Part shown: piece by piece, positions 5,670 to 52,474 of the stretch | How the letters are laid out: each line of letters begins with the position of its first letter | Numbering within the stretch: position 1 is the stretch's first letter | DNA from: a bacterium | Lineage (GTDB): Bacteria > Patescibacteriota > Minisyncoccia > UBA6257 > 02-FULL-45-10c | Assembly (NCBI GenBank): GCA_021786945.1 | Contig: JAJYMK010000003.1 | Location: 329,366-393,365 of the forward strand | Direction of reading: 5' to 3' | DNA length: 64,000 nucleotides | Translations under genes and position numbers: made by a program | The notes under the pieces: model-generated | The model's input: only the letters and a program-made list of their open reading frames with translations | Database searches by the model: none | What the model was told of the DNA's origin: nothing

Positions 5670-6806
5670 TTAAAAATTTCCTTTCATTATATCTTTCCTT
5701 ATTCCTCTCATCAAATTTTCCATAAAATAAATATTATGGATAGAAGTTAAAATACCGGCCAACATTTCCCCGCTCTGGAATAAATGTTTTACATACCCGC
5801 GGGTAAAATTCCGACAAGTGTAACAACCACATCCCTTTTCAATAGGCTTTTTGTCTAAAGCAAATTTTCCTGATTTCATATTCAGGTTTCCTTTTTTGGT
5901 TAAAGCTGTACCGTTCCTGCCCAATCTGGTAGGGGTCACGCAATCAAAAGTATCAATTCCTCGTCTTACCGCTTCAAAAATATCTTCAACCGAACCTATT
6001 CCCAATAAATGCTTAGGTTTATTTTCCGGGAGATTTTCCACAGACCAATCCAATTCATTCTTTTTTCCTTTTTTAAATTTACCGAAAGCTCCACCTATTC
6101 CAAAACCGTCAAAATCCATCTTGCCTATAAATTCCGAGCTCTTTAAACGCAAATCTTTGTATTCTCCGCCTTGCACGATGCCAAAAAGCATCTGATCTTT
6201 TCTTTTATGAGCCTTCAAAGATCTCTCAGCCCAGCGATGAGTACGCTCCATTGCTTCTTTTGTATATTCATAATCGGAAAAAGGTGAGGTGCATTCATCA
6301 AAAGCAAAAATAATATCCGCCCCCAGATTTTCCTGTATTTTCATAGATTCTTCCGGACCAATAAAATGCTTGGAACCGTCCAAAAAAGATTTAAAATAAA
6401 CACCGTCTTCGGTAATCTTCGCAAATTTTTCCATTCCGGCATTTCTTTTTTTTCTGGCTTCTAAAGCCGGCCCGGCAATTTTTGAAGCACCGTGTTCTAA
6501 TCCCAAACCAAGACTAAAAACCTGAAAACCGCCGCTGTCGGTAATAATCGGCTTGGGCCAATTCATAAATTTGTGCAATCCGCCAAATTTTTTAACAACT
6601 TCATCTCCCGGTCTCAAAAATAAATGATAGGTATTACATAAAACAGCTTCAATACCCATTTCGTTAAGCTGTGCCGGGGTAATACCCTTTACCGTTCCTT
6701 TTGTACCAACAGGAAAAAAAGCCGGGGTATGAATCTGACCATGAGGCGTATTAATAACTCCTGCTCGTGCACGATTTTTCTTGGATTTCTTTAAAATTTT
6801 AAACAT
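5670..6806 (-). CDS. tgt: queuine tRNA-ribosyltransferase (tRNA-guanine transglycosylase)
   Basis: Zn motif CGCYTCRNFTRGYVKHLF, DSGGFQV, and a MFKILKK…RARAG N-terminus like E. coli Tgt. The start is set at the internal Met (6806), because the longer ORF runs into the tRNA-Glu gene. Confidence 0.85.
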   Translation of the reverse strand: MFKILKKSKKNRARAGVINTPHGQIHTPAFFPVGTKGTVKGITPAQLNEMGIEAVLCNTYHLFLRPGDEVVKKFGGLHKFMNWPKPIITDSGGFQVFSLGLGLEHGASKIAGPALEARKKRNAGMEKFAKITEDGVYFKSFLDGSKHFIGPEESMKIQENLGADIIFAFDECTSPFSDYEYTKEAMERTHRWAERSLKAHKRKDQMLFGIVQGGEYKDLRLKSSEFIGKMDFDGFGIGGAFGKFKKGKKNELDWSVENLPENKPKHLLGIGSVEDIFEAVRRGIDTFDCVTPTRLGRNGTALTKKGNLNMKSGKFALDKKPIEKGCGCYTCRNFTRGYVKHLFQSGEMLAGILTSIHNIYFMENLMRGIRKDIMKGNF

Positions 6807-6820
6807 AGAAATAAAAAGTA

Positions 6821-6892
6821 GTCCCAACGGGAGTCGAACCCGTGTTTTATCCGTGAGAGGGATATGTCCTGCCACTAGACGATGGGACCGAA
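6821..6892 (-). tRNA. tRNA-Glu(CTC)
   Basis: The reverse complement GTCCCATCGTCTAGTGGCAGGACATATCCCTCTCACGGATAAAACACGGGTTCGACTCCCGTTGGGAC resembles E. coli tRNA-Glu. Anticodon loop is CTCTCAC. Confidence 0.75.
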
Positions 6893-6915
6893 TAATTGGC
6901 TGACTAAAAGCTATT

Positions 6916-8151
6916 TTATACTACTTTTATCTCTTCTACAACTTTTTCCAAATGCATAGCGTGAGAACCTTTTATAATCACCAGATCTCCTTTTTTCATT
7001 ATTTCCTGGACTTTAAGCCTTGCGTCTTCGGAAGTTTCAAAACTGAATATATTTTTTATCGGCATACCTTTTTTGGAGGCTGATTCCGCAATAAATTTAG
7101 ATCTCGGACCAACGGTTACAAGAATATCAAAAACTTCAGGAATCAATCTTCCCAATTCTTCATGGGCCTCAATAGTATACTTCCCAATTTCAAGCATGTC
7201 GCCCAACACCGCAATTTTTCTTTTGAATTTTAAAGACTGCGCCAACTCAATGACAGCCTTCATAGAAGCCGGGGATGCATTATAACTATCGTCGATCAAA
7301 AAAGAATCCTTAATTGCCGGCATCATTTTTGTTCTTTGTGCTGGAGACTGATAATCCCTTAAAGCTTCAGAAACCTTTACCAAGTTCAAACCAAAAGCAA
7401 AACCCACAGCAGCGGCAGCGGCAGCAGCATAAGCCTGTGGCTTACCAAAACAGTTATCTATCCTTACGGGCACAAAAGACCCGCCATAATTCAATTTAAA
7501 AGCAATTCCGACGGGTTTACCATCCTCCATCCTATTTTCAAAATTAGTTATCTGAATAGCGGCTTCCGGACCAAAACCATAACTCATAACGTAGGCCTTA
7601 GTCCTGGATTTCATTTCGGCTACATATTTATCATCAACGTTCAAAACTGCAAATCCGGTACTCGGCAAAATCTCTAAAATCTTTGATTTTTCCCGAGCTA
7701 CGGCATCTGGGCCGCTATAAAATTCAACATGCGCGGGCACATCGCCCACCGCAGTAATAACTCCTATTTGCGGTCTAGCAACATCCAAAAGATTTTTAAT
7801 ATCTCCGGGCTTATCAGCGGCATATTCCAAAATAAGTATTTCCGGGTATTTAAATTTAAATACCAATTTAAAAAAAGAAATAAAAATTACTTTAAACCAA
7901 AAAGCTCCGCCTATAATTTCCCGATAATCACCCAAAATAGTTAAAGGAAGGCCAAGTTCATTATTAAAATTTCCGTGGGTAGCTCTTACAAATCTAGAAT
8001 CTTTCAAAACGCTAAAAATAGCTTCTTTAGTAGAAGTTTTTCCTACACTTCCCGTTACAGCAATGATTCCCGGCTGATATTTCTTCAAAGTCAAAACAGC
8101 TAGTTTCCTTATAATTTTTTCCAATTGTATTTTGAGTTGTTCTTTGTTCAT
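6916..8151 (-). CDS. murF: Mur ligase, UDP-MurNAc-pentapeptide synthetase MurF-like (short, with a low-complexity insert)
   Basis: P-loop IAVTGSVGKTSTKE and the DDSYNASPASM signature. Position after ftsI in the dcw cluster. Confidence 0.7.
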   Translation of the reverse strand: MNKEQLKIQLEKIIRKLAVLTLKKYQPGIIAVTGSVGKTSTKEAIFSVLKDSRFVRATHGNFNNELGLPLTILGDYREIIGGAFWFKVIFISFFKLVFKFKYPEILILEYAADKPGDIKNLLDVARPQIGVITAVGDVPAHVEFYSGPDAVAREKSKILEILPSTGFAVLNVDDKYVAEMKSRTKAYVMSYGFGPEAAIQITNFENRMEDGKPVGIAFKLNYGGSFVPVRIDNCFGKPQAYAAAAAAAVGFAFGLNLVKVSEALRDYQSPAQRTKMMPAIKDSFLIDDSYNASPASMKAVIELAQSLKFKRKIAVLGDMLEIGKYTIEAHEELGRLIPEVFDILVTVGPRSKFIAESASKKGMPIKNIFSFETSEDARLKVQEIMKKGDLVIIKGSHAMHLEKVVEEIKVV

Positions 8152-11595: not shown

Positions 11596-11648
11596 TATAT
11601 CCATTTTACACCACTAGACCAAATTATGTCAAAGGGCTACACAACAAT

Positions 11649-11677
11649 AAAAAAGCCCGTATTTACGGGCTTTTTTG
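11649..11677. terminator. hairpin AGCCCGTATTTACGGGCT with flanking A/T runs
   Basis: A symmetric terminator-like hairpin lying between mraZ upstream region and tRNA-Val. Confidence 0.5.
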
Positions 11678-11738
11678 GCTATTCATTAAAATTATCCACA
11701 ATAAGCTTTTTTTGCTTATTCCCCACTTTATAAATTGT

Positions 11739-11809
11739 GCGCTCTGCAGGGATCGGACCTGCGACCTTTCCGATGTGAACGGAACGCTCTACCACTGAGC
11801 TAAGAGCGC
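11739..11809 (-). tRNA. tRNA-Val(CAC)
   Basis: The reverse complement GCGCTCTTAGCTCAGTGGTAGAGCGTTCCGTTCACATCGGAAAGGTCGCAGGTCCGATCCCTGCAGAGCGCA folds as a cloverleaf. Anticodon loop is TTCACAT. Confidence 0.8.
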
Positions 11810-11903
11810 AATAAAAATTATTTATTACTTAAATATAATAAACAAAAAACACGCCGAATTCAATTAAATTAAAAAATGATTGGGTTTTAAATTTTTATTA
11901 AAA

Positions 11904-13148
11904 TCAGTTTTTAAGACAACGAACAGGAAATCCCCATGCCCCGCTGTATGAGTACCGAGCTACCGTTGTATAAATAGAAGCCAAAAGCCGCGCCCATGCG
12001 CCACTTCCTCCAGCATCCGAAGACCAAAAGTATGTGTAAGCGTCACGATTACCAAATGACCCAGTAACGCCTCTATAACCAGTTAAAGTACTGTTAAATC
12101 CAGATATTCCGCCAGATTTTAATTTTGTTCCAGCGGCACTACAATCCCAAGTTCCATTCCTAGAAACATTGCAAGTCTGACCCGCATCGGTAAGATATTG
12201 GTCTAGTATATTTTGTTCGGCATCTGTAGGAACGTGCCATCCCACGGGACAGACACCTTGAGCTCCAGCTATTGTTGAACCATGCATAGCGGCCGACCAT
12301 TGATAAACGAAGCCAAATTTATTAGAAATAATGTTAGCAAGTGTTTCTTCGGCGCTATTAGTGGCATTTGGAGGATAAGAATAATAACCATGGTCTAGGC
12401 CATCCCAAGTTGCAGTAACAGGACCTCTGGTTATAGCTGTTCCATCAGGATATTTAGTGGTTCTAATATTCTCAGTCATCCAACATTGTGTGCCAATTAA
12501 AACAGTTGAATAAGAATTATTATCAGCGTCAGTAATTAAGTCTCCACAAGTCAAGCCTGGCAAAATAGCCGAATCTAGGCTCAAATCATTTCCAGTCTCA
12601 AATCTTGTAGAACTTCGTCCTCCATCAGCAACGGCATTCGATGCAAGATATTTGTCGGATTCAAGAGTAGCAGAAAGAGCCCAAGAACCAGGGATATAGG
12701 TGTAGTAGAGACCATTAGCTACGGTATTGACTGGATCAATAGGGAGATTGGAGAAAAGAGTTCCGGCTGAGGATTGAACTGAAGATAGATTGACTGGTAT
12801 CCAACCTGTACCGTCTATATTTCTGTAGTTTCCTGAGGTAGAACAGTGATAGCTACCACTACTGAGAGCTGGGAGACCAAGATCAGAACAATTGGCTTGA
12901 GCGCTTGGTATAGATACATAGACATCACCATGGGTACCCATATTGGTGCTACCTCCAAAGGATTGATACAAGAGAAGAGCTTGGTTTATAGATGTTATCT
13001 CCGTGATTCTATTGGCATCTCTGCTCTGCTTTACCATCTGAGCCGGGTTTATGACCAGGAGAACTGTTGTGGCCAGGACTGCTAATATACCTATGACTAT
13101 CAATAGTTCTATGAGGGTGAAGGCTTTTTGGAATTCAAAACGATTCAT
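11904..13148 (-). CDS. type IV pilin-like protein with C-terminal Fibrobacter-succinogenes-type (FISUMP) domain
   Basis: Prepilin N-terminus QKAFTLIELLIVIGILAV. The C-terminal region has GTQCWMTENIR…, CPVGWHVPTDAEQ…, YFWSSDAGG… and GFPVRCLKN blocks typical of the TIGR02145 paralogous domain. Confidence 0.6.
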   Translation of the reverse strand: MNRFEFQKAFTLIELLIVIGILAVLATTVLLVINPAQMVKQSRDANRITEITSINQALLLYQSFGGSTNMGTHGDVYVSIPSAQANCSDLGLPALSSGSYHCSTSGNYRNIDGTGWIPVNLSSVQSSAGTLFSNLPIDPVNTVANGLYYTYIPGSWALSATLESDKYLASNAVADGGRSSTRFETGNDLSLDSAILPGLTCGDLITDADNNSYSTVLIGTQCWMTENIRTTKYPDGTAITRGPVTATWDGLDHGYYSYPPNATNSAEETLANIISNKFGFVYQWSAAMHGSTIAGAQGVCPVGWHVPTDAEQNILDQYLTDAGQTCNVSRNGTWDCSAAGTKLKSGGISGFNSTLTGYRGVTGSFGNRDAYTYFWSSDAGGSGAWARLLASIYTTVARYSYSGAWGFPVRCLKN

Positions 13149-13213
13149 ATTTAATTATTTTAGCATAATTATATAGAAATAAAAAAAAATATAATAAACA
13201 TATTGTACATAGA

Positions 13214-13250
13214 AACAAAAAACGCCCTGAATTCAATCAGGGCGTTTTTC
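13214..13250 (-). terminator. rplL terminator (ACGCCCTGAATTCAATCAGGGCGT)
   Basis: A perfect hairpin with T-run on the minus strand, right after the rplL stop. Confidence 0.6.
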
Positions 13251-13256
13251 ATAAAA

Positions 13257-13628
13257 TTACTGAAGTTCAACTGTAGCACCGGCAGCTTCCAATTTCTTCT
13301 TCAAATCTTCAGCCTCCTCTTTCTTTAAGCCTTCTTTAACGGCTTTAGGAGCGGCATCTACAATATCCTTGGCTTCTTTCAAACCAAGACCAGTAGCTTC
13401 TCTCAAAACTTTGATAACCTGAATCTTTTGAGCACCGCCGTCTTTCAACATAACTTTCCAGGCGGTCTTCTCTTCGGCTTCGCCTCCGGCAGCAGCACCG
13501 GCTCCGGCAGCCATTACCGGCATAGCGGCAGAAATTCCGAACTTCTCCTCCATCGCCTTTACAAATTCGGCGAGTTCAACAACTTTCATTTCCGCAATCT
13601 TATCCAATAAATCTTTATACTTTTCCAT
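13257..13628 (-). CDS. rplL: 50S ribosomal protein L7/L12
   Basis: Ala/Glu-rich hinge and the conserved C-terminal domain [22 protein letters not shown]. Confidence 0.9.
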
Positions 13629-14166: not shown

Positions 14167-14333
14167 AATTTGTGAATCTTATAATGATTCTATTTTTTTA
14201 ATTAAAAAAGGACCTTTACAGTCCATAGTATATTTGCCCTCACAGCAAATTTTATTTTCCTCGACAGGACTTATGGGTGCCTGTTGTCTATGGATGTACA
14301 TATAATATATACAAAAATGTCCAAATCGTCAAG

Positions 14334-14374: not shown

Positions 14375-15706
14375 TTAATCCTTCTTTTCGTCTTTTCCGT
14401 CTTCCTCTTCCTTTTCAAAAACAATTTTGGATTTCTCATTGAGTACGACGTAAATTATGTCTTTCTCTTTGATGAATCCCTTGTTCTTGAGCCGGCAAAG
14501 GGGCTTGCGAAGATATTTGTAAACCTTATTCTTCACGAGCCGTGCGCCATTTTCAGGCTTATCGGTAGCTTCGTTGAGGATGAATTCCTTAACCCTCTCG
14601 TCAAAGACGAGGGTAACCGGAAAACTCTTCAGGACTTTTTCCTGGAATTTGCGCAGTTCCACGTCAACAATCTTGCGCAATATATCCGGACCAAGGGGTC
14701 TGTAAACGCTTATTCTGTCGAGCCGCGCCAGAAATTCCGGCGGGAAAGCTTTCTTAAGCTCTTCGAGGGACTGCTTGTATATTTCTTTATCCAAGACAGA
14801 CTCCTCTTTTTTCTCTATCTTCTGAACGAACCCAAGCTTACCTTTCGGATTCAGTATTTCGGCGATCTGGCGGGAACCGACGTTAGTCGTCATGAGAATA
14901 ACCGAATTGGAAAAATCGGTTATCATGCCGTTGGCCAACTGCAGCTGCGCCTTATCGATGATATTCAGAAGTATATTATGAAGAGCCGGATGGGCTTTTT
15001 CTATCTCATCAAAAAGAATGATGGATTTAGGCCGTTTAACTTCGGTAAATGCCTGCATAGCCGCAAGTCTGTTTACCTCAGACACAACCTTTTCGCGCTC
15101 AGCGAGTATCGGAAAAGCTTCTTTGAGTTTCTTGTTAAGAAGTGGCCATTTCTTTACGTCTACATTTCCCTTCTCGTCAAAAAACTCGGAAAACTCTACC
15201 ATCTGATCGGCTAAGTCATAATTCAACTGAATAAGCTCTTTGACTTTTTCGTTGAATTCTTCTTTCGCCTTGATCATTTTAGGATCCGTGTCTTTTGCGA
15301 ACTTATCGATGCTCCCCTGAAACAGAATGGGAGCAGTGCCCGAATCCCGCGGATCTTTCGGATTCCAGTGGCCAACATAGCCAGCCGGAGAACCGATGAG
15401 TTTGGAAATGCTATGGCTTTCCGAATACGCTTCACACGGAATTTTCGTGAAAGCATTCCTGTCACCAAACCAGTATTCAGCAAGTAATTCAGCCGTTAAG
15501 GTTTTACCGACACCGGAGGGTCCCGCGCACAAACCCACGTAAATAGGTTTGTTTTCCGTAAACATCTCCGACTCGAAAACCTCTATTGCATCGGCCAAAT
15601 CTTTCACTGCCTTATCCTGGCCTTTTATAACAGACAACATGAATTCTAAAAGCCGTAAAGCTTTTTCGCTTGGCTTTTCGCCATCCAACCTTATTCTGCG
15701 TTTCAT
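14375..15706 (-). CDS. standalone Clp/Hsp100 D2-type AAA+ ATPase with ~90-aa insert between Walker A and B
   Basis: ClpB-D2-like entry VIKGQDKAV…PIYVGLCAGPSGVGKT (Walker A). Walker B/sensor block IILFDEIEKAHPALHNILLNIIDKAQL. Sensor-2 EFLARLDRISVYRPLG. Strong SD (GGGGGTGA). GC is elevated (~45%). Confidence 0.7.
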   Translation of the reverse strand: MKRRIRLDGEKPSEKALRLLEFMLSVIKGQDKAVKDLADAIEVFESEMFTENKPIYVGLCAGPSGVGKTLTAELLAEYWFGDRNAFTKIPCEAYSESHSISKLIGSPAGYVGHWNPKDPRDSGTAPILFQGSIDKFAKDTDPKMIKAKEEFNEKVKELIQLNYDLADQMVEFSEFFDEKGNVDVKKWPLLNKKLKEAFPILAEREKVVSEVNRLAAMQAFTEVKRPKSIILFDEIEKAHPALHNILLNIIDKAQLQLANGMITDFSNSVILMTTNVGSRQIAEILNPKGKLGFVQKIEKKEESVLDKEIYKQSLEELKKAFPPEFLARLDRISVYRPLGPDILRKIVDVELRKFQEKVLKSFPVTLVFDERVKEFILNEATDKPENGARLVKNKVYKYLRKPLCRLKNKGFIKEKDIIYVVLNEKSKIVFEKEEEDGKDEKKD

Positions 15707-15835: not shown

Positions 15836-17104
15836 TTATTTGACATCGCCAGGCTTCTCCTCTTCACACTGCTTGGAAAAAACCACGTCTTTGCCATCGA
15901 GGTCGACACAGACTATATCCGCTTCTTTTATTTCTTTCCGGTTCCTGAGCCGCGCCATTTCCCGCCTTATGTACTTATCGAACTTGGCAAGAAGCGTCGA
16001 GGCTCCGAATTCCAGACGGTCCAAAGATTCGTTAACGATGAAATTCTTAACTTCATCGCTTATCCTGAGCGAAATAGGAAATGAAGCGTTAACCAGTTCC
16101 GTATAGAACTTATTAAGCTCCAGATCGAAAATCTCGTTCAGAGAATCTTTGAACAGCGGACGGAAAACAGATATCCTGTCAAACGAAGACAGGAAATCAA
16201 GACTTATATTTTCGACCGCAAACTGCATTGAAGATTTATAAATCTTCTTTGCGTCCGAAAGCCGATCATATATAGCCTTGTCCATTTTCTCGATCTGTTC
16301 TTTGCTAGGAGGTTCGAAACCCAGCCTTCCCTTTTTCAGTCCCCTCACCTCTTCCATTATCACATCCGAACTGATGGTGGACGTAACAATAACTATAGAA
16401 TTGGTAAGATCGACTTCTTCGCCGTTTTCGAATCGCACGTATCCGTCTCTCAGCACTCTCTGGATAATACTGAGCATGCCGGGACAAGAACGTTCGAAAT
16501 CACTGAAGACGACGATGGAAAGACTGTTCTGGGGTTTGTAACTGTTGAGCTTCTCCTCAAGAACATTGATTGCATCAACGAGATTAATGCAATGCTTCGT
16601 GGTATCGCCAAGCTTCTGCCGCAGCTCATCTGAGCCGACAGCCGAGTCATTGGCGGTATTACAAAGCCTGAAAAGTTCAGCCTGTTTTTTCTCCAGTATC
16701 TCCTGTAGCTTTTTCTGGCCATTGAATATCCGGCAGTAATCCTTGTTCCTCAGTAAAAGAGGAAGATCGATTTCCGCTCTGGACAACATAGCCGGAACAG
16801 CCGCTACGGTTTCCATATTGAAAGCTCCGCAAGGAATTTCGGAATAATACTTGCTGTTTCCGAAAAATATTTCCGCCAAGCTTTCGACGAAAAGCCGTTT
16901 TCCGACATTTGGCAACCCCAGAAATAATCCCTTATAAATAGGGCTATTTCTGCGCCTCAGTCCGGAAGTCAGGCCTTCAAAGCATTTCACGAAGTTTCCG
17001 ATAACCGGATCCTGACCCTTAATCCTTTCTTTTAACATCGCAAAGAGATTAGAGGCCTTGTCGCTTTTTTCTCCCCGGGAAAGACGTATCATTTTGCGTT
17101 TCAT
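15836..17104 (-). CDS. paralogous Clp-D2-like AAA+ protein with degenerate Walker A/B (predicted pseudo-ATPase)
   Basis: Same architecture as the neighbour (IKGQDPVI…GLFLGLPNVGKRL; SEIPCGAF; FLSSFDRISVFRPL). The residue after the P-loop Lys is R instead of S/T. Walker B reads VVFSDFERSCP rather than hhhhDE. Strong SD AAGGGAGGGG. Confidence 0.65.
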   Translation of the reverse strand: MKRKMIRLSRGEKSDKASNLFAMLKERIKGQDPVIGNFVKCFEGLTSGLRRRNSPIYKGLFLGLPNVGKRLFVESLAEIFFGNSKYYSEIPCGAFNMETVAAVPAMLSRAEIDLPLLLRNKDYCRIFNGQKKLQEILEKKQAELFRLCNTANDSAVGSDELRQKLGDTTKHCINLVDAINVLEEKLNSYKPQNSLSIVVFSDFERSCPGMLSIIQRVLRDGYVRFENGEEVDLTNSIVIVTSTISSDVIMEEVRGLKKGRLGFEPPSKEQIEKMDKAIYDRLSDAKKIYKSSMQFAVENISLDFLSSFDRISVFRPLFKDSLNEIFDLELNKFYTELVNASFPISLRISDEVKNFIVNESLDRLEFGASTLLAKFDKYIRREMARLRNRKEIKEADIVCVDLDGKDVVFSKQCEEEKPGDVK

Positions 17105-41949: not shown

Positions 41950-42651
41950 TTAATCCCTAAAATCACTTCTTGGACTTACAGATGTCTGAAGATTATTAAA
42001 AGGAACTCTTGATTCTGATATTTGTGTATTTTTAGTACCAATTCTCAACAAAATAGTTATTTTTGGATAATCCCGGTATTTAAATCCAACCCCACTATCA
42101 ATCCTGAAATTCGCGTATTCCACCCTCAAATTTTCACTGACAATACTTGTAAAAACATCGGGTACACCACTATCACAAGTAGCATATCCCATAGCTCTAC
42201 TACTCCACTCCAAAGTTCTGTTAGCCACATTCCATCTATAAGTAATATAATTTCCTTTATATTGAAATTTTAGACATTTGTATGCAATAACCCCCCCCTG
42301 ATCATACGCTGTCTCATTTGCAAAAGTTGAACCCGCGCCCTTTCGTATCATCCTTGCCATTTGGTCGAGTGTGAGAGAGGCGTCGTTATTAGCCGAAATC
42401 AACGCCACCGCGGTTCTGTTTGTCCTTAAGGAATAAACAAAGATGCCCGAAACTATTGCTATCACAACTGAAAAAACCGATATAGCCACTAAAAGCTCTA
42501 TCATTGTAAACCCCCGCACCAAACGAGCATCAAACGCTTGGCGTTTCTGTCCAAACAATAATCCTTCTGGTGAGAAGGTAAACCATCCTTTTTTTGAAAA
42601 TTTTAATCCAGGAATATTTTGAAACATAAAAATTAGTGAAGCAGGTTCCAC
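41950..42651 (-). CDS. prepilin-type N-terminal cleavage/methylation domain protein (pseudopilin)
   Basis: RG|FTMIELLVAISVFSV, a class III signal with Glu at +5. Confidence 0.6.
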   Translation of the reverse strand: MEPASLIFMFQNIPGLKFSKKGWFTFSPEGLLFGQKRQAFDARLVRGFTMIELLVAISVFSVVIAIVSGIFVYSLRTNRTAVALISANNDASLTLDQMARMIRKGAGSTFANETAYDQGGVIAYKCLKFQYKGNYITYRWNVANRTLEWSSRAMGYATCDSGVPDVFTSIVSENLRVEYANFRIDSGVGFKYRDYPKITILLRIGTKNTQISESRVPFNNLQTSVSPRSDFRD

Positions 42652-43172
42652 TTAAACTCTTTTAGATCATAAAAGTAATCGACAACGCTGAAATCATAAG
42701 ACTCTGTTTTTGATTTCCAGTAAACGGTAGAAATGACCTTTATATGGCTATCATCAATGTTTGTTATATTTATTTTTCTATTAAATGTAGTTATCTTGTC
42801 ATCTTCAATTTGTTTATATCTATAGCCGCCGCCATCGATATTAAAATACAAAAAATCATTTGATCCATCCCAAGGAAAAAGCGACGATTGTGTATAATCA
42901 ATTTTATAATCACCATCAATAGTAAAACCCGGAAGAGTATTCCAAGGATTATCATCTATAATATTTCTATCTAATAAATTTTTAACCAGCTCAACTCCTT
43001 CATTGGCTAGATTTATAGCAACGTATCTGTCGGCATCTATCCTATTTACACTTAAGGAGGTGGATGTAAGAGTAAAAATACCAAGCAATCCAATAACGAT
43101 AACCGACAAGCCTATTAAAGCCTCTACCATAACCTGTCCGGAATATTTTTTTAGTTTATTGGAGATTTTCAT
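42633..43172 (-). CDS. type IV pilin-like protein
   Basis: KKYSG|QVMVEALIGLSVIVIGL, a prepilin leader with Glu at +5. Confidence 0.55.
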   Translation of the reverse strand: MKISNKLKKYSGQVMVEALIGLSVIVIGLLGIFTLTSTSLSVNRIDADRYVAINLANEGVELVKNLLDRNIIDDNPWNTLPGFTIDGDYKIDYTQSSLFPWDGSNDFLYFNIDGGGYRYKQIEDDKITTFNRKINITNIDDSHIKVISTVYWKSKTESYDFSVVDYFYDLKEFKWNLLH

Positions 43173-43253
43173 TGTCTATTATTTTATTATATCAGAAAAA
43201 ATCATTTTTTTTATATATATTTTGTGATATTCTAAATAAAATAACCATTTTAA

Positions 43254-44879
43254 ATGAAAAATATTTTTAGTAAAAATAGAATGTTACTGGCCGCCATGTT
43301 CATTACTGCTTTTTCGAGCATGGTTTATGAATTTGTATTGGCCAACACACTCACCTTCCTTTTAGGTGATACCATCCTCTACTACACTCTCGTTATAGGA
43401 TTCTTCATGCTTTCTCTGGGTATTGGATCTTATTTATCCTATAAAATTGGTCTGGATCCTATAACAAAACAACATCATGACTTTAAAAGTTCAAAAGCAT
43501 TGGTTATTGCCCAATTATTTCTTGGTTTAATAGGCGGAGGATCTTCTTTTGCGATACTTTATCTGGGAGGCTCTTCTATTCATGCACAAAACGCTCTTAC
43601 CGAAAGCAGCGGACTAATTAAAATACTCTTGGCTTCCACTATCCCCCTGCATCTTATAGCTTTAATTTTAATATGCGGCATTGGATTGCTGGTGGGACTG
43701 GAAATACCTCTTATTTACAGACTTCTGGAACGCACAGAAAAAAGATTGGCTTTGGTATTGGCAGCTGACTATCTCGGATCCTTTGTGGGATCTTCAATGT
43801 TTTCTTTGTTTTTGCTGCCGACCCTCGGAATACTAAGGGTTTCTTTTTTGGCTGGGATTCTCAATCTGTCCGCCGGACTTCTCCTTATTTTTTCCAGACA
43901 AGAAATTTCCAAAAAAATATTCCTCACCCTCTATGCAATACTTGCAATTATATTATGCTGGGGCTTCTCAAACTCCGACAGCTTGGAAAACTATTTGGAC
44001 ACGATTTACTATTCCGGAGATAATCCAGTAACAATCGTTGAAAGAATAAACTCGCCATATCAAAAAATTGTACTGACCGAAAGAAAAGAAAAAGAGAGAA
44101 ATGAAATCTCTCTTTTTTTAAATGGCTATTTGCAATTCGACTCCAAAGACGAATCACAGACATATCACAAAACCCTTGTTGATCCCGCTTTTTATCTGGC
44201 CAAAAATCATAAAAATATATTGATCTTGGGGGGCGGCGACGGTTTACCGGCTCAAGAAGTGCTTAGACAGCCCGGCGTTGAAAAGATTACAGACGTAGAC
44301 ATAGACAAGGCTATAGTAGATCTGGCCAAAGACAACAGCTTGTTAAGCGAATTCAACGGGCATGCATTTAGCGATCCAAAAGTTAACATCGTAATACAAG
44401 ATGCCTTTTTATATGTAAGAAATTCGCATGAAAAATTCGATGTTATCGTTGTAGATTTCCCGGAGGGCGTTGATATTCCCCTAGCTAGATCATATTCAAT
44501 ACAATTTATAAAAGACCTTGGAAGAATTCTTTCGCCTGGAGGCGTAATCGCTTTCCAAGTTGATACCTTCGATACATTAAGCTATTGGTCTGTAGTAAAA
44601 ACAATAGCTGCTTCCGGACTTTATATTCTTCCCACGCACACCATTCCGCCACAAGGAGCTTCTTTTGAAAAAGAAGGAATAATATTTGCAAGCAACTCCA
44701 GCTTTGATTTGTCCAATCTTAAAGAAGATTACGCTTTCTGGGCAAAATCTCTTTTAAACGGACAAAGCCTGCAATTCTCCAATAAACTCAGCCAGGTAGA
44801 CATAAACACCTTCTACAGGCCAATTTTCCTTCATTATTTCAAGAAAGAATTCTGGGCATCCTTCTGGATTGGGTTATAA
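43254..44879 (+). CDS. membrane-bound spermidine synthase-like protein (paralog of 39382-41094)
   Basis: A polytopic N-terminus. The SpeE fold has ILILGGGDGLPAQEVLRQPGVEKITDVDIDKAIV. Confidence 0.7.
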   Translation: MKNIFSKNRMLLAAMFITAFSSMVYEFVLANTLTFLLGDTILYYTLVIGFFMLSLGIGSYLSYKIGLDPITKQHHDFKSSKALVIAQLFLGLIGGGSSFAILYLGGSSIHAQNALTESSGLIKILLASTIPLHLIALILICGIGLLVGLEIPLIYRLLERTEKRLALVLAADYLGSFVGSSMFSLFLLPTLGILRVSFLAGILNLSAGLLLIFSRQEISKKIFLTLYAILAIILCWGFSNSDSLENYLDTIYYSGDNPVTIVERINSPYQKIVLTERKEKERNEISLFLNGYLQFDSKDESQTYHKTLVDPAFYLAKNHKNILILGGGDGLPAQEVLRQPGVEKITDVDIDKAIVDLAKDNSLLSEFNGHAFSDPKVNIVIQDAFLYVRNSHEKFDVIVVDFPEGVDIPLARSYSIQFIKDLGRILSPGGVIAFQVDTFDTLSYWSVVKTIAASGLYILPTHTIPPQGASFEKEGIIFASNSSFDLSNLKEDYAFWAKSLLNGQSLQFSNKLSQVDINTFYRPIFLHYFKKEFWASFWIGL

Positions 44880-44990
44880 ATTTGCCTCTGTTTACTATAT
44901 TGACTTTTTGTTAAAATAGTGATATTATATATATTAGTATAAGTTAAGTGCAACGATTGAAAATTTAATAAAAATCTGGAGGAAAAGTAT

Positions 44991-45704
44991 ATGAAAAAGA
45001 TATGGGTGGCTGTACTGACGTTTGTACTCCCCCTGATCTTCACCCTCAGGGTGAACGCTCAGGCGGTTTCGGATAACCCTTCGAAGGCAGAGATCCACAA
45101 GCTCTTCGATACGGTACCCCTCGAAAAGATGGATAAGCACGGGGTGCCGGTAAAGGAGCCGAGATTCAGCGCTTCAATAGGTATCGGACCTGGTTACCAT
45201 ATCGGGTTTGAAAATGTGGGACGAATAAAGGCTTATGATAACGCCTTTTCCTTCTCCACCCGCCTCGGATACTCCCCCCTGAAATATTTAGAAATTCAGG
45301 GTGAATATTCCAAGACGGGCATCTTCAAAAGACACAGGCCCGAATACAAACAGACGATCTCTTTCACCTTCTATACCTTTACGGTTAACTTGAAGGCTGG
45401 TATCCCGGTAGAGGTAAAAGGGCATAAATTTTACCCCTATCTAGTCGGCGGATACGGAAGAGCCGTGCTTTACTACGAAAATGTGGATACGATGAGCGGA
45501 GTGGTAAGCTGGGTTCCTAAAAAGTATTACACCAATTATTGCTCGAAAATAGGATTTGGGATTGAGACGCAAATCTCGGATCAAATATTCCTATTTTCTG
45601 AAGTGAATAATTGGAAAATGCTAAAATGGAATCCTTACTACAGCGTCGATCGTTTGGACATAACTTATTCACAAGCACTGGTCGGAGCAACACTGAAGTT
45701 CTAA
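44991..45704 (+). CDS. outer-membrane beta-barrel-like protein (porin-family fold)
   Basis: Signal peptide MKKIWVAVLTFVLPLIFTLRVNA. Alternating amphipathic strands and a C-terminal …GATLKF aromatic terminus. The gene is ~50% GC. Confidence 0.55.
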   Translation: MKKIWVAVLTFVLPLIFTLRVNAQAVSDNPSKAEIHKLFDTVPLEKMDKHGVPVKEPRFSASIGIGPGYHIGFENVGRIKAYDNAFSFSTRLGYSPLKYLEIQGEYSKTGIFKRHRPEYKQTISFTFYTFTVNLKAGIPVEVKGHKFYPYLVGGYGRAVLYYENVDTMSGVVSWVPKKYYTNYCSKIGFGIETQISDQIFLFSEVNNWKMLKWNPYYSVDRLDITYSQALVGATLKF

Positions 45705-45705
45705 A

Positions 45706-45742
45706 CAAAAAACCCGCGGACAACCGCGGGTTTTTATTTTTT
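45706..45742 (+). terminator. terminator ACCCGCGGACAACCGCGGGT plus T-run
   Basis: A perfect GC hairpin after the stop codon. Confidence 0.6.
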
Positions 45743-45745
45743 AAA

Positions 45746-47299
45746 CTATTGATACGCTTTCTCGCAATTACCCAAATTATTACATACATATCCAGACGAA
45801 CAAGTTCCACAAGAAATAGTTCCACCGCAGCCGTTGTCTACACCACCGCAGGTCCTAGAAATACAAGCGGTTGTAGTAGCTGTCGGAGTACAACTACTAG
45901 AATCAACACAAGCTCCGTTTGTACAAACTTGGCCGGAAGAACAAACTAATTCCGGCATTACCAACCTTGTAACACCGCAGTTGCTTACCTGGGAAATCTG
46001 CGAAGTTCCGCAAATAGTTTTAACATCGGGAGTATAAGAAGACGAAGTGCAAGTAAAACTCGGGATTCCGGAAGGAACAACGGGAATACTATTTGCATCA
46101 TTTAAAATCTGAACTGATAGCTTTGCTATATCACTATCGCTTGTAAATCCGAGAGTTTTTAAGAAGCTGCTTATATCGCATTGACCACCAATAAACTTAC
46201 TATTCTGATAATCAAACGAAGAAAGGCTGAAACAATCAAATGTATTACCCTTGGCAGTTACCTGCACCATAGCACCGGTATATAGGTTCTCTCCGGCTAC
46301 GGAAGCTACGTTAAACTTACCGTCACTTAAATCATTTTTGCTAATAACAACAGATGGACTTACGGGTTCCGGTAAAGTTATTTTAAAACAATCTTTACAC
46401 TCGCTCATTTTTCCGTCTGGATTCTGGATTCTTACGCTCCAAGCTCCAGTAGGCGCATCGGTAATATTACAAACGCCACCAGTAAGAGTTCTAGAATCCG
46501 GTACAGTAAAACCAGTACAATCAACACTTTTACCATCGTTTACCAAAGAAACTTTCGTATCCTTTGAAAATCCAGCGCCAGTGAGAGTCATCGCGTTAGT
46601 TAAATATTGAACGTTGGTTGGAGCCGAAACCACATCGCCATCGCTGCAACCAGCAGCATTACAAGCCACAACTTTATAATAAAAAGGTTTAGTTGGATCC
46701 TGAATTCTGTTTTCCAAGAAAAATCTTTGCCCATTATTCATCTCGGTAGTGGTTATAACGGTAGATAAGGAAGACGCACTCGTTCCTCGATAAATTTTAT
46801 AAGAGACACTCGAGGCTCCACCTAAAGAAGAAGGGGCGTCCCAATAAACTCTGAATCCGTGGTTAATATAAGTTCCGTCTTCATATTTATTAGAAACTTG
46901 AACGTTTAAAGGTTTTGACGGGATAGTTTGAATGGTTGAGGGGCCCGTTGGATTTATACCGGATCCCGTTTCTAGACAAACCGTACCAAACGAACCCAAA
47001 CAAGTACCCGCAGAAACAAGACCGGTAAATTGTTCCGCGATTTGATTTACCGGGCAAGAAAGGCCAAAAGTAACGCCGCATTGACCTACGCCGGAAACAA
47101 TATTAACCACATTGCCAACCATTTGAGCCACCGGTGCCACAACGGCATTATAAACAGTATTCACTACAGGTATGCTATTTATTATATTTTCTCCAATTGA
47201 AACAACTGTGCCAATAACAGGCGTGCCCTTTGCTTGAGCGGCGGGTACCACCAAAATTGAACCGACCAGAACTAATGATAATAATATTTTTTTATACAT
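45746..47299 (-). CDS. large secreted protein with Fn3-like module and Cys-rich C-terminus
   Basis: A signal peptide. Fn3-like block YKIYRGTSASSLS…YYKVVACNAAGCS. C-terminal CxxC-rich region. Confidence 0.45.
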   Translation of the reverse strand: MYKKILLSLVLVGSILVVPAAQAKGTPVIGTVVSIGENIINSIPVVNTVYNAVVAPVAQMVGNVVNIVSGVGQCGVTFGLSCPVNQIAEQFTGLVSAGTCLGSFGTVCLETGSGINPTGPSTIQTIPSKPLNVQVSNKYEDGTYINHGFRVYWDAPSSLGGASSVSYKIYRGTSASSLSTVITTTEMNNGQRFFLENRIQDPTKPFYYKVVACNAAGCSDGDVVSAPTNVQYLTNAMTLTGAGFSKDTKVSLVNDGKSVDCTGFTVPDSRTLTGGVCNITDAPTGAWSVRIQNPDGKMSECKDCFKITLPEPVSPSVVISKNDLSDGKFNVASVAGENLYTGAMVQVTAKGNTFDCFSLSSFDYQNSKFIGGQCDISSFLKTLGFTSDSDIAKLSVQILNDANSIPVVPSGIPSFTCTSSSYTPDVKTICGTSQISQVSNCGVTRLVMPELVCSSGQVCTNGACVDSSSCTPTATTTACISRTCGGVDNGCGGTISCGTCSSGYVCNNLGNCEKAYQ

Positions 47300-47346
47300 A
47301 TTTTTATTTTTTCGCCGACTGGCGATTTTAATTTATTTTTTAAAAA

Positions 47347-48735
47347 TTATTTATAACCGACGGGTGGATAGATCCCATCAAGACGAATAGGAATAACTCC
47401 TATTTGACAACTGCCATTAACACAAGAGTAGCCGGGCTGACTACAGCCCTGGCATAAACCGCCACATTGCCCACAAGTATCGCCATTCGCATCGGGTACA
47501 CATCCAGTGCAAGTTTCGCAGCTCTTTGTAGTTGTATTGCAATAAGCATTATCTCCCGTGCAAACCACACAGGCCACGCCGCAATTATCGGTATCTACGC
47601 AAGTTTTGCCATCACAAATATTGGGCGGGTTTACAACACAAATATTATTACATGCGCCTAAACAATCAGAAGCTGTATATTCCCCCGCTGCAGCCGGAAT
47701 GCAGGTATTGGCATTACATGTGTAGTGCGGGATTCCGCTGCAAGAACTATTACAATTAGAGTCTGTAAAAGAACCATTTGGGTCGGCAATGCACAAAGAA
47801 CCGTTGCAGGAATAATGCGGAGTACCGCTACAAATTCCGCCACAATCAGAAGCGGCAAGGGAGCCGCCTTTATAAGAAATACAAAGTGATCCATCGCAGG
47901 CATATTGAGCAATTCCGCTTCCGCAAAGCCCGCCGCAACCGTCCGAACATGTTTGCCCCGAAGGTAAATTGGTTGCGCAAAAACAATTCGGTATACAATT
48001 ATTTAAATCTTCATTAAAAACAGGTATTTCTGTCTCTTGAATAGTATTATCTTGTTTTGTTTCCCCTGTCTCTAAATTAATGGTAGCTATGCCGTTATTA
48101 AAATTTTCGCTGCTCACATAAACCCCGGGCTTGGAAGTAACTTGACCGGTCGTCGCAATTTTTAAAGTAACATATGAGGTGGGGGCAGACTCTGTATTTA
48201 TAACTATAATTCCGGCGGAAGAAGTGACATCGCATCCAATCTCACAAATAGATTTTCCTTGAAAATTAAATAATTTAGCTTTTGCATCGGACGAATAAAA
48301 AACAACATCTTTTATAAATTGAGAACTGGAAGTTATAGCTGTAACATTTAAAATTCTTAAACCGGAAGATAAATTATTTACACCTCCCTGACCCGCCAAA
48401 GGACTGTCTTTAACCAAATTAACACAATCTTTATAAGAATAAATTGTATAAGTATCCGGATTATTATTTATCCCCTGCTCAAAAGATACTCCGTATCCGC
48501 AAATACCCTTATCCGCACCGGCGCCCTGCAAAGTAAGGGCCTTAGCCCTGTTTATAGCACTAGCCACTCCGGCGATATCTGTATTTAGATTAAGTTGCGC
48601 CTGATTAACCTTATTATTTACAAGCAAAACGGCGGTTGTTACCGCCAAAACTCCAACTACCGCAATAGCTTCCACAAGAGTAAACCCCGCCTGCGCAGAT
48701 AGACCTCCTTGAAAATTTATATGTTTTTTGAACAT
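47347..48735 (-). CDS. pilin-like protein with long Cys-rich tandem-repeat C-terminal domain (candidate minor pilin/adhesin)
   Basis: AG|FTLVEAIAVVGVLAV prepilin N-terminus. C-terminal ~27-aa repeats such as PHYSCNGSLCIADPNGSFTDSNCNSSCSGI / PHYTCNANTCIPAAAGEYTASDCLGACNN. Confidence 0.55.
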   Translation of the reverse strand: MFKKHINFQGGLSAQAGFTLVEAIAVVGVLAVTTAVLLVNNKVNQAQLNLNTDIAGVASAINRAKALTLQGAGADKGICGYGVSFEQGINNNPDTYTIYSYKDCVNLVKDSPLAGQGGVNNLSSGLRILNVTAITSSSQFIKDVVFYSSDAKAKLFNFQGKSICEIGCDVTSSAGIIVINTESAPTSYVTLKIATTGQVTSKPGVYVSSENFNNGIATINLETGETKQDNTIQETEIPVFNEDLNNCIPNCFCATNLPSGQTCSDGCGGLCGSGIAQYACDGSLCISYKGGSLAASDCGGICSGTPHYSCNGSLCIADPNGSFTDSNCNSSCSGIPHYTCNANTCIPAAAGEYTASDCLGACNNICVVNPPNICDGKTCVDTDNCGVACVVCTGDNAYCNTTTKSCETCTGCVPDANGDTCGQCGGLCQGCSQPGYSCVNGSCQIGVIPIRLDGIYPPVGYK

Positions 48736-48769
48736 ACTCCTTATTTAATAATTATAATTCTTCTATAAA

Positions 48770-49657
48770 TTAAAACAAACCAAAAATTTTAAAATAATGG
48801 CTTAAAATATATTGCCCAAAAAACATAAGTGTTAGCGACCCTAAAATCAAAAAAGGACCAAAAGGCACAGAGTCCTTAAATCCTTTTATTCTTTTTATCA
48901 ATAAATAAATTCCGAAAATTGATCCGATTATAAAAGAGAACGCCAAGAGAAATACAACATCTGGCCAGCCAAAAATAATGCCTAAAGCTGTAATAAATTT
49001 AAGATCACCGAAACCCATCCCCTTTCCTCGTGTGGCAAAAATAATAAGACCGATAACCAAAAAACCTATGGCCATTCCCAATAAATGATTCGTCCAGATA
49101 TTCTGCCTGAAACCAAAAAGCATGGAAAAACTTCCGACAAATGAACCATTGCCAAATTGAGAAAAATTATTATAAAAATAATTCTCGGCGATCAAAAGAA
49201 TGCCCAAAATACCGGCAAAAATATTAAGCTCGTCGGGAATGATATAAAATCTGTAATCTATAATCCAAATAAGGATAAATACCAGAAAAATAGAAATCCA
49301 AAGGGCACTAAAAAGCCATAAAAATAAAGGCGAATTCAAAAAAACAGAGTTTAATTCAGGAACCGCCTTAAAATAAAAAGGCAGTAAAAAAGTAAATCCT
49401 CCGGCTAATTCCACTAGAGGATATTGCCAAGAAATTTTAGATCCACATTTCCTGCACCTTCCAAGCTGGGCAAAAAAACTTACTACAGGAATAAGTTCGT
49501 ACCAGCTGAGAGTTTTGTCGCAAGTTCTGCATTTGGATCTGCCGGTGCATTTTTTTATATTGCAAAAAAAACTTTCCTCCGGAAAATAACGGAAAGCAAC
49601 AACATTTAAAAAACTGCCTATAGCCAAACCGATTAAAAATAAAAGTAGCCAGGGCAT
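48770..49657 (-). CDS. pilD: prepilin peptidase (A24 family)
   Basis: N-terminal CxxC…CxxC zinc finger, polytopic, with catalytic Asp motifs. Confidence 0.8.
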   Translation of the reverse strand: MPWLLLFLIGLAIGSFLNVVAFRYFPEESFFCNIKKCTGRSKCRTCDKTLSWYELIPVVSFFAQLGRCRKCGSKISWQYPLVELAGGFTFLLPFYFKAVPELNSVFLNSPLFLWLFSALWISIFLVFILIWIIDYRFYIIPDELNIFAGILGILLIAENYFYNNFSQFGNGSFVGSFSMLFGFRQNIWTNHLLGMAIGFLVIGLIIFATRGKGMGFGDLKFITALGIIFGWPDVVFLLAFSFIIGSIFGIYLLIKRIKGFKDSVPFGPFLILGSLTLMFFGQYILSHYFKIFGLF

Positions 49658-49661
49658 TTAT

Positions 49662-50096
49662 TTAGAAAGGTATACAAAATGTACTGGAAGTCTTCGTGCA
49701 ATCAATAGTACAAACTGTACCATACTCCTTAATCTGAGAAGTGCTGGTTTCCAATTTATCGCTTAAGACATAGTTGTAATCTGCACCTGCCGGGCAAACT
49801 GTATATTTATAAACATAATCACCGGAATTAGTGGGATCGGTGGGCAAATTTTTGACTCCGGCACTGGCTAATTGACTGACCAGATCTGTCCAAGTTACAG
49901 ATGTAGGATAAGATCCAAACTTAGCATAATAAAGCTCTAATCCATTTTGAACTTGTCGTAAATCACTCATTCTTTTTGCGTCTCTTCCGGAAGCCCTGAA
50001 ACCACTCATACCAACCAAAGTAAGAGCGCTCAAAACACCGATAATAGAAATAACAATTAAAATTTCAATTAATGTAAAGCCCTGTTGTTTTTTCAT
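49662..50096 (-). CDS. pilA: type IV major pilin
   Basis: MKKQQG|FTLIEILIVISIIGVLSA is the canonical class III leader. Start is set at the internal Met. Confidence 0.8.
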   Translation of the reverse strand: MKKQQGFTLIEILIVISIIGVLSALTLVGMSGFRASGRDAKRMSDLRQVQNGLELYYAKFGSYPTSVTWTDLVSQLASAGVKNLPTDPTNSGDYVYKYTVCPAGADYNYVLSDKLETSTSQIKEYGTVCTIDCTKTSSTFCIPF

Positions 50097-50120
50097 GTTT
50101 TTATTATAACACAACACTAA

Positions 50121-51329
50121 TTAAAAAGTCTGGACCAAGTTATACATAGGCAAAAGCACGGCGGCAAACAAGATACCCACGGCAACGCCCATTACAATCA
50201 TAATTGCCGGCTGAATAAGCTCGACTAAGTTGTCGATGGTTTCTCCAGCTTCACGGTTATAAAAAGATCCGGCCCGGGCAAGAAGTTCATCTAATTGACC
50301 CGTACTCTCTCCTACCGCAACCATCTGGCTAACCAATGTAGGAAAATAATCGCTATTTTGCTCCAAAGCATTGGAAAGCAAAACACCTTCGCGCACGGCG
50401 TCGGCCAGATCTTTAATGGCATCTCTATAAATAATACTACCTACTGTATGACTGGAAATTTCCAAAGCCTGTGCAACCGGAACTCCACCTTTAATAAGAA
50501 CGCTTGTGGATTCGGCAAATCTGGATACATAAGTTTTTTTAAATAAGCTTCCAAAAACAGGCAATTTGATAATAGTTTCATCCCACACCACTTTTCCTTC
50601 CGAGCTTTTAAAATAATTAATCAAGCTAAGTACAACCATAGCCAAGAAAATAATAATGGCAAGCCACCACTGCAAAAGAAAATTACCCATAAACAAAAAA
50701 ACTTGTGTGATAAGCGGCAACGGCACATTCGATTCGGCAAAAATAGGGGTCAATTGAGGAAAAACAAAACCGATCATTATAGCGCCAACAACAAATAGCA
50801 AAGATACGACAATGATAGGATAGGTTAAAGCGCCCTTTATTTTAGAACTGAATTCATAATCTTTTTCCAGATAGTCGGCTAAATAATTAACCACCTCGTC
50901 CACTCGGCCGGTAATTTCGGCTGATCGGATCATACTGATATAAAAATTGGAAAAAATATTGCCATGACGCTCCAGAGCTTGGGAAAAAGAAAGACCAGAA
51001 TCAACATCTGAAGAAATCTCCCCTATTACTTCCCGCAACACCAAATTCGGTGTTTGTTTATAAACATTTTTAAGAGAATCACCTAAAGATATTTTTGCAT
51101 TCAAAAGTACAGCTAATTGACGCGTAAGAATCATTACGTCTTTTTTCTTTACCTTTTTCAGGAAATTAACTATCGGATCGTACCAATGAGGAACTTCGGC
51201 AGACTCCAAGCTTAATAAATAGAGATTATTGCCAATCAAAATATTGTAAGCCGCTTCGCGGTTTACGCCCTCCACAAATCCGGTCTGTAATTCCCCTGTT
51301 TGCGTTCTGGCTGTGTACTTAAATTTCAT
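50121..51329 (-). CDS. pilC: type IV pilus assembly platform protein PilC (GspF family)
   Basis: Two T2SS-F repeats with three TM helices. Confidence 0.85.
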   Translation of the reverse strand: MKFKYTARTQTGELQTGFVEGVNREAAYNILIGNNLYLLSLESAEVPHWYDPIVNFLKKVKKKDVMILTRQLAVLLNAKISLGDSLKNVYKQTPNLVLREVIGEISSDVDSGLSFSQALERHGNIFSNFYISMIRSAEITGRVDEVVNYLADYLEKDYEFSSKIKGALTYPIIVVSLLFVVGAIMIGFVFPQLTPIFAESNVPLPLITQVFLFMGNFLLQWWLAIIIFLAMVVLSLINYFKSSEGKVVWDETIIKLPVFGSLFKKTYVSRFAESTSVLIKGGVPVAQALEISSHTVGSIIYRDAIKDLADAVREGVLLSNALEQNSDYFPTLVSQMVAVGESTGQLDELLARAGSFYNREAGETIDNLVELIQPAIMIVMGVAVGILFAAVLLPMYNLVQTF

Positions 51330-51358
51330 AAATTTGGCTTACAATCCAAAATTTAAAT

Positions 51359-52441: not shown

Positions 52442-52474
52442 ATTTTTTATTATAACAATTAATTTTAAGTTTTA

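Follow-up and report, generated by a model that had tools for sequence, protein, structure and literature searches.

The 64,000-nucleotide stretch of Patescibacteria DNA analyzed here (the window, in which all coordinates are given unless a locus is named) carries, between the ribosomal protein gene rplL and a valine tRNA gene, a gene whose 414-residue product is predicted to be a type IV pilin with a globular part that ends in a FISUMP domain of C-type-lectin fold and with a role in binding. We consider it likely that this lectin-headed pilin belongs to a family targeted by diversity-generating retroelements (DGRs) and is itself a fixed variant, and that its gene is a lineage-specific insertion that duplicated a module shared by the rplL terminator and the tRNA-Val promoter. 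The minus strand carries, in order, rplJ, rplL, a hairpin terminator, the 414-aa open reading frame (ORF), tRNA-Val(CAC), a bidirectional terminator, mraZ and rsmH (Table 1), in a window of 37.7% G+C. The arrangement of rplL, pilin gene and tRNA-Val is identical on eight contigs from independent assemblies, which excludes an assembly artefact.

Domain profiles bore out the fusion of a prepilin N-terminus with a FISUMP domain that an earlier, sequence-only reading of this DNA had proposed, with all four models scoring above their cut-offs. PF07963 (N_methyl) matched residues 7–29 (E 7.7e-6, 25.7 bits; cut-off 21.2) and TIGR02532 the pilin N-terminus (25.3 bits; cut-off 16.3). PF09603 (Fib_succ_major) matched residues 216–413 over profile positions 1–187 of 187 (E 2.9e-30, 106.4 bits; cut-off 33.9), and TIGR02145, the FISUMP model, scored 84.1 bits (E 2e-23; cut-off 41.65). 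The N-terminus, MNRFEFQKA/FTLIELL, has the features of a class III signal peptide, with Ala at −1, Phe at +1, Glu at +5 and a hydrophobic stretch; residue −1 is G, A or S in the alignment of homologues. An AlphaFold2 model (pLDDT 83) has a helix at residues 12–63 followed by a beta-rich head, with the C-terminal domain set apart. Over the N-terminal helix, a family profile matched solved type IV pilins (E 4e-10 to 1e-3), and a Foldseek search with the model alone gave nothing significant (best E 0.29), with Vibrio cholerae TcpB as a weak match. The C-terminal domain has a C-type-lectin fold, as in DGR variable proteins, and carries the equivalent of their variable region (VR).

The window also contains a type IV pilus cluster, and the presence of a prepilin peptidase, PilB-, PilT- and PilC-like proteins and pilins at 41–54 kb makes processing and assembly plausible. 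The peptidase would cleave the FISUMP pilin after Ala9, and the protein would be assembled into a type IV pilus, where, given its bulk, it would probably be a minor or tip subunit. Its last ~49 residues would form a ligand-binding face for attachment, for example to a host cell. We note that the cluster pilins have Gly at −1, compared with Ala in the FISUMP pilin and its paralogue, and that further prepilin-like genes (233, 462 and 151 aa) and several ORFs without Pfam matches lie beside the PilB/T/C/D genes (41950–50117, minus strand).

The sequence-only reading had described the FISUMP domain as normally found in secreted or lipoprotein paralog families of Bacteroidetes and Fibrobacteres, but the fusion is not unusual, as the architecture is common in Patescibacteria and already annotated. 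Dozens of Patescibacteria proteins have the full architecture at 40–68% identity, and several are annotated as such, under the names [quoted passage not shown] or "FISUMP domain-containing protein". These type IV pilins of the Patescibacteria, or candidate phyla radiation (CPR), share with the window pilin the two-Pfam architecture, the length class, identity over the full length and a conserved scaffold of Cys, Trp and Arg, which in the family alignment is accompanied by a variable C-terminal stretch. The pilin module of ~200 aa is also fused to other C-terminal domains (Laminin_G_3, fn3, FGE-sulfatase and CBM_4_9) at 65–86% identity, and four paralogues with this module lie on the same 696,638-bp contig. 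The nearest homologue, P0002, is 68% identical and lies next to thrC, and other family members are scattered among unrelated housekeeping genes or grouped in a cluster of four. In the latter case (L167, 6671–12934), four prepilin-FISUMP paralogues occupy ~6 kb of one Patescibacteria genome, with no reverse transcriptase (RT) within 8 kb. One of the four paralogues on the 696,638-bp contig, P0016, is another FISUMP pilin of the genome studied here. Its gene lies directly after rplK and a terminator (L164, 3421–5230), where rplA would normally be expected, which makes it a second pilin gene 3' of one for a ribosomal protein; a search around it for flanking repeats gave none. The N-terminal modules of the two FISUMP pilins share ~80% protein identity with many synonymous differences, and we saw no sign of recent gene conversion between them.

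The link to DGRs, which is absent from the sequence-only reading, comes from close homologues, which are DGR targets, and from the FISUMP head, a member of the class of C-type lectins diversified by DGRs. The gene for P0002 is followed by bAvd, a template repeat (TR) and an RT (L163), with VR and TR matching at 165 of 194 positions and 18 of the 29 mismatches falling at TR adenines. Among three further loci with an RT of the same clade, two have a prepilin-FISUMP target and the third a different large target, so that three of the four cassettes examined in this clade serve such pilins. The two additional prepilin-FISUMP cassettes (L169 and L171), which like L163 each consist of target, bAvd, TR and RT, have 19/20 and 15/16 of their TR–VR mismatches at TR adenines. 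The three TRs encode a nearly identical peptide, to which the last 49 residues of the window pilin align, differing at every Asn codon. Where the window's VR equivalent diverges from the three TRs, it does so preferentially at A sites (p 0.005, 0.015 and 0.08). As a side observation, the L171 cassette has on its flanks another reverse transcriptase gene and one for a large serine recombinase (1006–2274 and 6254–7525) and adjoins a type II restriction-modification fusion gene, and it may lie within a mobile region.

We searched for DGR components within the window, that is, 64 kb of a ~697-kb genome. Neither the RT nor the Avd of L163 had a tblastn match there below E 0.37, and the last 447 nt of the pilin gene had no second copy and no TR in the window by blastn. 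No RT from the pilin-bearing contig appeared among the best 120 of 7996 RT matches (all at least 63% identical to the query), which is a weak test. A protein search for a TR-encoded ORF with the 73-aa C-terminal stretch returned no candidate, although it also missed the query protein itself. The 90% cluster of the window pilin has a single member sequence, with no near-identical variants in the database, and exact matching retrieved all eight contigs on which it occurs. We conclude that the window pilin is a member of a DGR-target family, not a demonstrated target, and that it is most likely a fixed, stand-alone variant.

The alternative, that the pilin is a remote target of a DGR elsewhere in the genome and that its lectin face is still being hypermutated in trans, seems to us unlikely. 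It gains from the three homologues, the closest one included, that are true DGR targets, from the fold of the C-terminal domain, from the bias of divergence toward A sites of the homologous TRs, and from the enrichment of DGRs in CPR bacteria (Roux et al. 2021). The lack of RT, Avd and TR in the window, the outcome of the RT search with its limited power, and the single-sequence cluster recovered by exact match on all eight contigs argue the other way. The window pilin gene also has no GC-rich hairpin after its stop codon; however, such a hairpin follows the VR in L163 and L169 and is absent from L171, one of the three real cassettes, so it has no discriminating value as a DGR marker.

The position of the pilin gene results from a lineage-specific insertion of ~1.36 kb between rplL and tRNA-Val. 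We compared 160 loci encoding RplL relatives, taken from genome and metagenome collections. In the closest relative found (L083; RplL identity 91%, DNA identity 80–88% over an AAA gene, rplJ and rplL), the rplL stop codon is followed by AATAAAAAAACACGCCGATTGAATTCGGCGTGTTTTTTGTTTATGATACTT...GCGCGCATAGCTCAG, that is, by the terminator and then tRNA-Val with no intervening gene. Many Paceibacteria-like relatives likewise have tRNA-Val(CAC) 35–150 nt after rplL on the same strand, and direct adjacency occurs at many phylogenetic depths (RplL identity 60–91%). Searching the 160 loci with the pilin by tblastn, we found no pilin in the rplL–tRNA-Val spacer; the sole match was a pilin module without FISUMP in L009, 1.3 kb past the tRNA. 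The empty site in L083 and the absence of spacer pilins (0/160) make insertion far more parsimonious than repeated loss, in agreement with the sequence-only reading, which had placed an insertion at the junction of rplL terminator and tRNA-Val. The insert contains one ORF and no recombinase or transposase among the ORF calls, and since the GC3 of the pilin gene (0.31) is similar to that of neighboring genes, there is no sign of recent foreign origin.

The reverse history, in which the ancestor already had the pilin here and relatives lost it when the direct repeats described below recombined, leaving the empty sites as deletion products, is improbable in our judgment. Direct repeats of 34 nt would permit precise excision, and the length of the rplL–tRNA-Val spacer differs among lineages. 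This history would have to contend with direct adjacency at all of the depths mentioned, with the lack of a spacer pilin in any of the 160 loci, with homologous pilins located elsewhere in unrelated contexts, and with a nearest homologue beside thrC that is only 68% identical.

The insertion is bracketed by direct repeats, as had been noticed from the sequence and as alignment confirmed. Positions 11831–11844 and 13187–13200 are identical at 14 of 14 bases (AAATATAATAAACA), and 11840–11864 matches 13213–13237 at 22 of 25 bases. The two blocks are colinear, with 17 extra bases (13196–13212) in the right copy, and the left copy lies 22 nt upstream of the tRNA-Val 5' end. The copies differ in folding: the right one forms a strong hairpin (−23 kcal/mol, z −7.07), and the left one has no stable fold (−5.2 kcal/mol, z +0.8). 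Compared with other Patescibacteria FISUMP pilins, both the position between rplL and tRNA-Val and the duplicated terminator/promoter module are unique to the window pilin; flanking repeats were looked for around four other family members and none were found, so the repeat is not the hallmark of a mobile cassette.

A mobile origin of another kind, in which an integrase or transposase brought in the segment as a small mobile element or genomic island and the repeats (the ATTGAATTC junction) are att sites or a target-site duplication, is very improbable, even with flanking direct repeats and a tRNA gene as neighbor. The single ORF, the lack of a recombinase or transposase and the absence of flanking repeats in other family members are contrary to it, as is the location of the repeat upstream of the tRNA 5' end and not across the 3' end. 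Inverted matches at the ends of the insert are weak and AT-rich (71–78%), and the duplication spans 34 nt; the target duplications usually made by transposases are far shorter.

Coincidental or convergent similarity between two AT-rich intergenic regions, both of which require a T-run and a −10 box, is the least probable explanation: in an AT-rich region, and with lenient gap costs, a first shuffle test reached the observed score in 138 of 2000 shuffles and did not separate the repeat from AT-rich noise, but chained local alignment of the two regions under strict scoring was matched in only 3 of 5000 dinucleotide shuffles (z 4.3), 0.35 occurrences of the 14-mer with at most one mismatch and 0.01 of the degenerate 25-mer are expected per 64-kb window, and half of the L083 terminator recurs unchanged in the left copy.

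A probable overlap between terminator and promoter would explain the repeat. The right copy belongs to the present rplL terminator, as the sequence-only reading held: the arms are complete, 13 nt long and 100% complementary, and a terminator scan reported 16 pairs. The same reading described the left copy as a truncated duplicate of this terminator, which is correct insofar as its 5' arm is missing, replaced by the insert end, but not in implying decay. The left copy matches the 3' half of the L083 terminator at 27 of 27 positions and appears to be an intact tRNA-Val promoter, in which a promoter scan identified a −35 box TTGAAT (11858–11863), a 17-nt spacer and a −10 box TATTAT (11835–11840). 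It is the right copy that deviates, with three compensated base pairs and the 17-nt insert, which sets its loop apart from its −10-like box.

The same layout is conserved in relatives. In eight of them, the terminator loop reads TTGAA[T/A] and a TAnnnT hexamer follows 17 nt downstream (16 in L098), 12–25 nt before the tRNA. The stems vary among genomes by compensated changes that leave loop and spacing as they are. The simplest explanation is an overlap of the rplL terminator with the tRNA-Val promoter, the loop serving as the putative −35 box and the 3' arm and T-run as the spacer. Insertion without duplication of the module would have cost either the rplL terminator or the tRNA-Val promoter. 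Insertion would instead have duplicated the 34-nt shared module, so that the right copy would act as rplL terminator and the left copy as tRNA-Val promoter. The pilin gene would be transcribed from its own TATAAT hexamer, and its paralogue P0016 has TTATAAT at the equivalent position. Since the pilin gene has no terminator of its own, its transcripts would read through tRNA-Val to the hairpin at 11648–11677.

Several points weigh against this account. Three base pairs, all fully compensated, set the right hairpin apart from both the left copy and L083, and the repeat bases outside the stem are identical. Such a pattern is not what a simple target duplication with subsequent drift would predict. 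The right stem may have evolved fast, or the right flank may have been replaced by later recombination or may have arrived with the insert. In addition, the L083 contig ends within tRNA-Val, and the roles of promoter and terminator are read from consensus and conservation. On the side of the protein, incorporation into a pilus, cleavage after Ala −1 and ligand binding are predictions. Finally, the visible share of the genome leaves room for a DGR acting in trans, to which we assign a low probability.

The domain combination can be placed among known systems. Fib_succ_major, DUF1566 and DUF823 form a known class of DGR targets, CLec2 or "category d" (Wu et al. 2018, PMC5758913). The literature notes pilin-type domains that hold a VR as rare, and some DUF1566 targets have been reported to include "putative pilin structures". 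The window pilin resembles DGR variable proteins of this class, such as Legionella LdtA, and structurally TvpA (2Y3C), TaqVP (5VF4) and Mtd (1YU0), in having a C-terminal stretch that aligns with the VRs and TRs of homologous cassettes; in contrast to those systems, no RT, Avd or TR lies within the 64 kb. Display also differs, with a type IV pilin N-terminus here compared with a lipoprotein signal in LdtA and a phage tail fiber in Mtd. Minor or modular type IV pilins with large C-terminal domains, such as V. cholerae TcpB, similarly combine the helix with additional globular domains that fit the pilus tip, but there is no significant match to them beyond the helix and the C-terminal fold is different.

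The closest parallel in concept is with the DGR-diversified tip adhesins of Bacteroides type V pili (Macadangdang et al. preprint, PMC11601372), in which a distal C-lectin head is the diversifiable, ligand-binding part. The Bacteroides pili belong to another phylum and are type V, made from a lipoprotein precursor by strand exchange, whereas the pili here are type IV, with prepilin peptidase and PilB/PilC; and the window pilin is a member of a diversified family but not itself a demonstrated target. The prepilin-FISUMP cassettes are the type IV counterpart of the Bacteroides case, a modest addition and not a new kind of system. Because prepilin-FISUMP proteins are recurrent DGR targets, these findings suggest that Patescibacteria episymbionts place hypervariable lectin heads on type IV pili, as Bacteroides does on type V. 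The stronger combination, in which Patescibacteria use type IV pili to display lectin heads diversified by DGRs and a DGR elsewhere in the genome still diversifies this very copy in trans, is doubtful. CPR DGR targets have been described as typically lacking recognizable membrane or conserved domains, with surface display left open (Roux et al. 2021), and pilin display, if general, would answer the question of how they reach the surface.

The gene alone is of modest value, and most notable are the terminator/promoter overlap and the recurrent targeting of this pilin family by DGRs. The overlap documents a conserved layout in which the loop of a terminator hairpin would also serve the following promoter as its −35 box. 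The filled and empty sites form a clean pair, in which a very reduced genome would have gained an adhesin gene without breaking two overlapping signals.

Table 1. Features of the window, and comparison loci referred to in the text
Feature	Position	Strand	Remarks
rplJ	14166–13654	−	
rplL (ribosomal protein L7/L12)	13257–13628	−	Upstream of insert; ORF call; Pfam Ribosomal_L12 on identical contig; syntenic with L083
Present rplL intrinsic terminator (putative)	13215–13252	−	Arms 13218–13230 and 13237–13249; loop TTGAAT 13231–13236; followed by T-run
Right copy of direct repeat	13187–13237		Terminator loop, 3' arm, T-run and −10-like TATTAT (13191–13196); split by 17-base insert
TATAAT hexamer, putative pilin −10	13168–13173	−	Perfect; ~20 nt before pilin ATG
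Prepilin-FISUMP gene, 414 aa	11904–13148	−	ORF call and domain profiles
Prepilin parts			Leader residues 1–9; alpha-1 helix 12–63; pilin head ~64–200; FISUMP 216–413 (12503–11910)
DGR variable-region equivalent	11907–12053	−	Residues 366–414, GNRDAYTYFWSS...GFPVRCLKN; in-frame alignment to VR/TR of L163, L169, L171
Left copy of direct repeat, 34 nt	11831–11864		Putative tRNA-Val promoter; 3' half of ancestral rplL terminator, without 5' arm
tRNA-Val, anticodon CAC	11737–11809	−	Downstream of insert; ARAGORN; Rfam tRNA 67.5 bits
Bidirectional terminator hairpin	11648–11677		3' of tRNA-Val; arms 13/13; first terminator downstream of pilin gene
Type IV pilus cluster	48770–54205	−	Pfam T2SSE (two copies), T2SSF, N_methyl, Peptidase_A24
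PilB-like ATPase	52475–54205	−	
PilT-like	51359–52441	−	
PilC platform	50121–51329	−	
151-aa pilin	49662–50117	−	
Prepilin peptidase	48770–49657	−	
Loop/−35 layout in relatives			L083, L003, L005, L019, L006, L090, L098, L004
rplL and tRNA-Val adjacent			L005, L006/L086, L008, L009, L019, L088, L090, L095, L098
tRNA-Val-like fragments and palindromes			L004 1456–1650; L006/L086 after rplL; L087 3366–3670; L003 4430–4500; L169 4145–4165

The rplL–tRNA-Val spacer is a recurrent site for extra genes. A small Cys-rich ORF (65–74 aa, CxxC...CxxC) occupies it in two relatives (L007, 4451–4648; L084, 3516–3740), and more distant relatives (L010, L012, L013, L051 and L077) have a conserved ORF of ~205 aa in the same spacer. 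In several relatives, the interval from the promoter to the real tRNA-Val also contains incomplete tRNA-Val-like pieces as well as GC-rich palindromes. One palindrome, CCTGCCTGCCGGCAGGCAGG, lies within the D-arm region of tRNA-Val in L003, and a near-identical one is found just after the VR in L169; it may be a small palindromic mobile element.

Upstream of rplJ, we observed a sub-threshold match to the ribosomal L10 leader (14195–14311, minus strand; 37.7 bits compared with a gathering score of 44). Directly upstream of rplJ as well, at the position expected for rplK and rplA, are genes for two paralogous AAA_2/ClpB_D2-small proteins of 443 and 422 aa (14375–15706 and 15836–17104, minus strand), the first of which is syntenic in L083.

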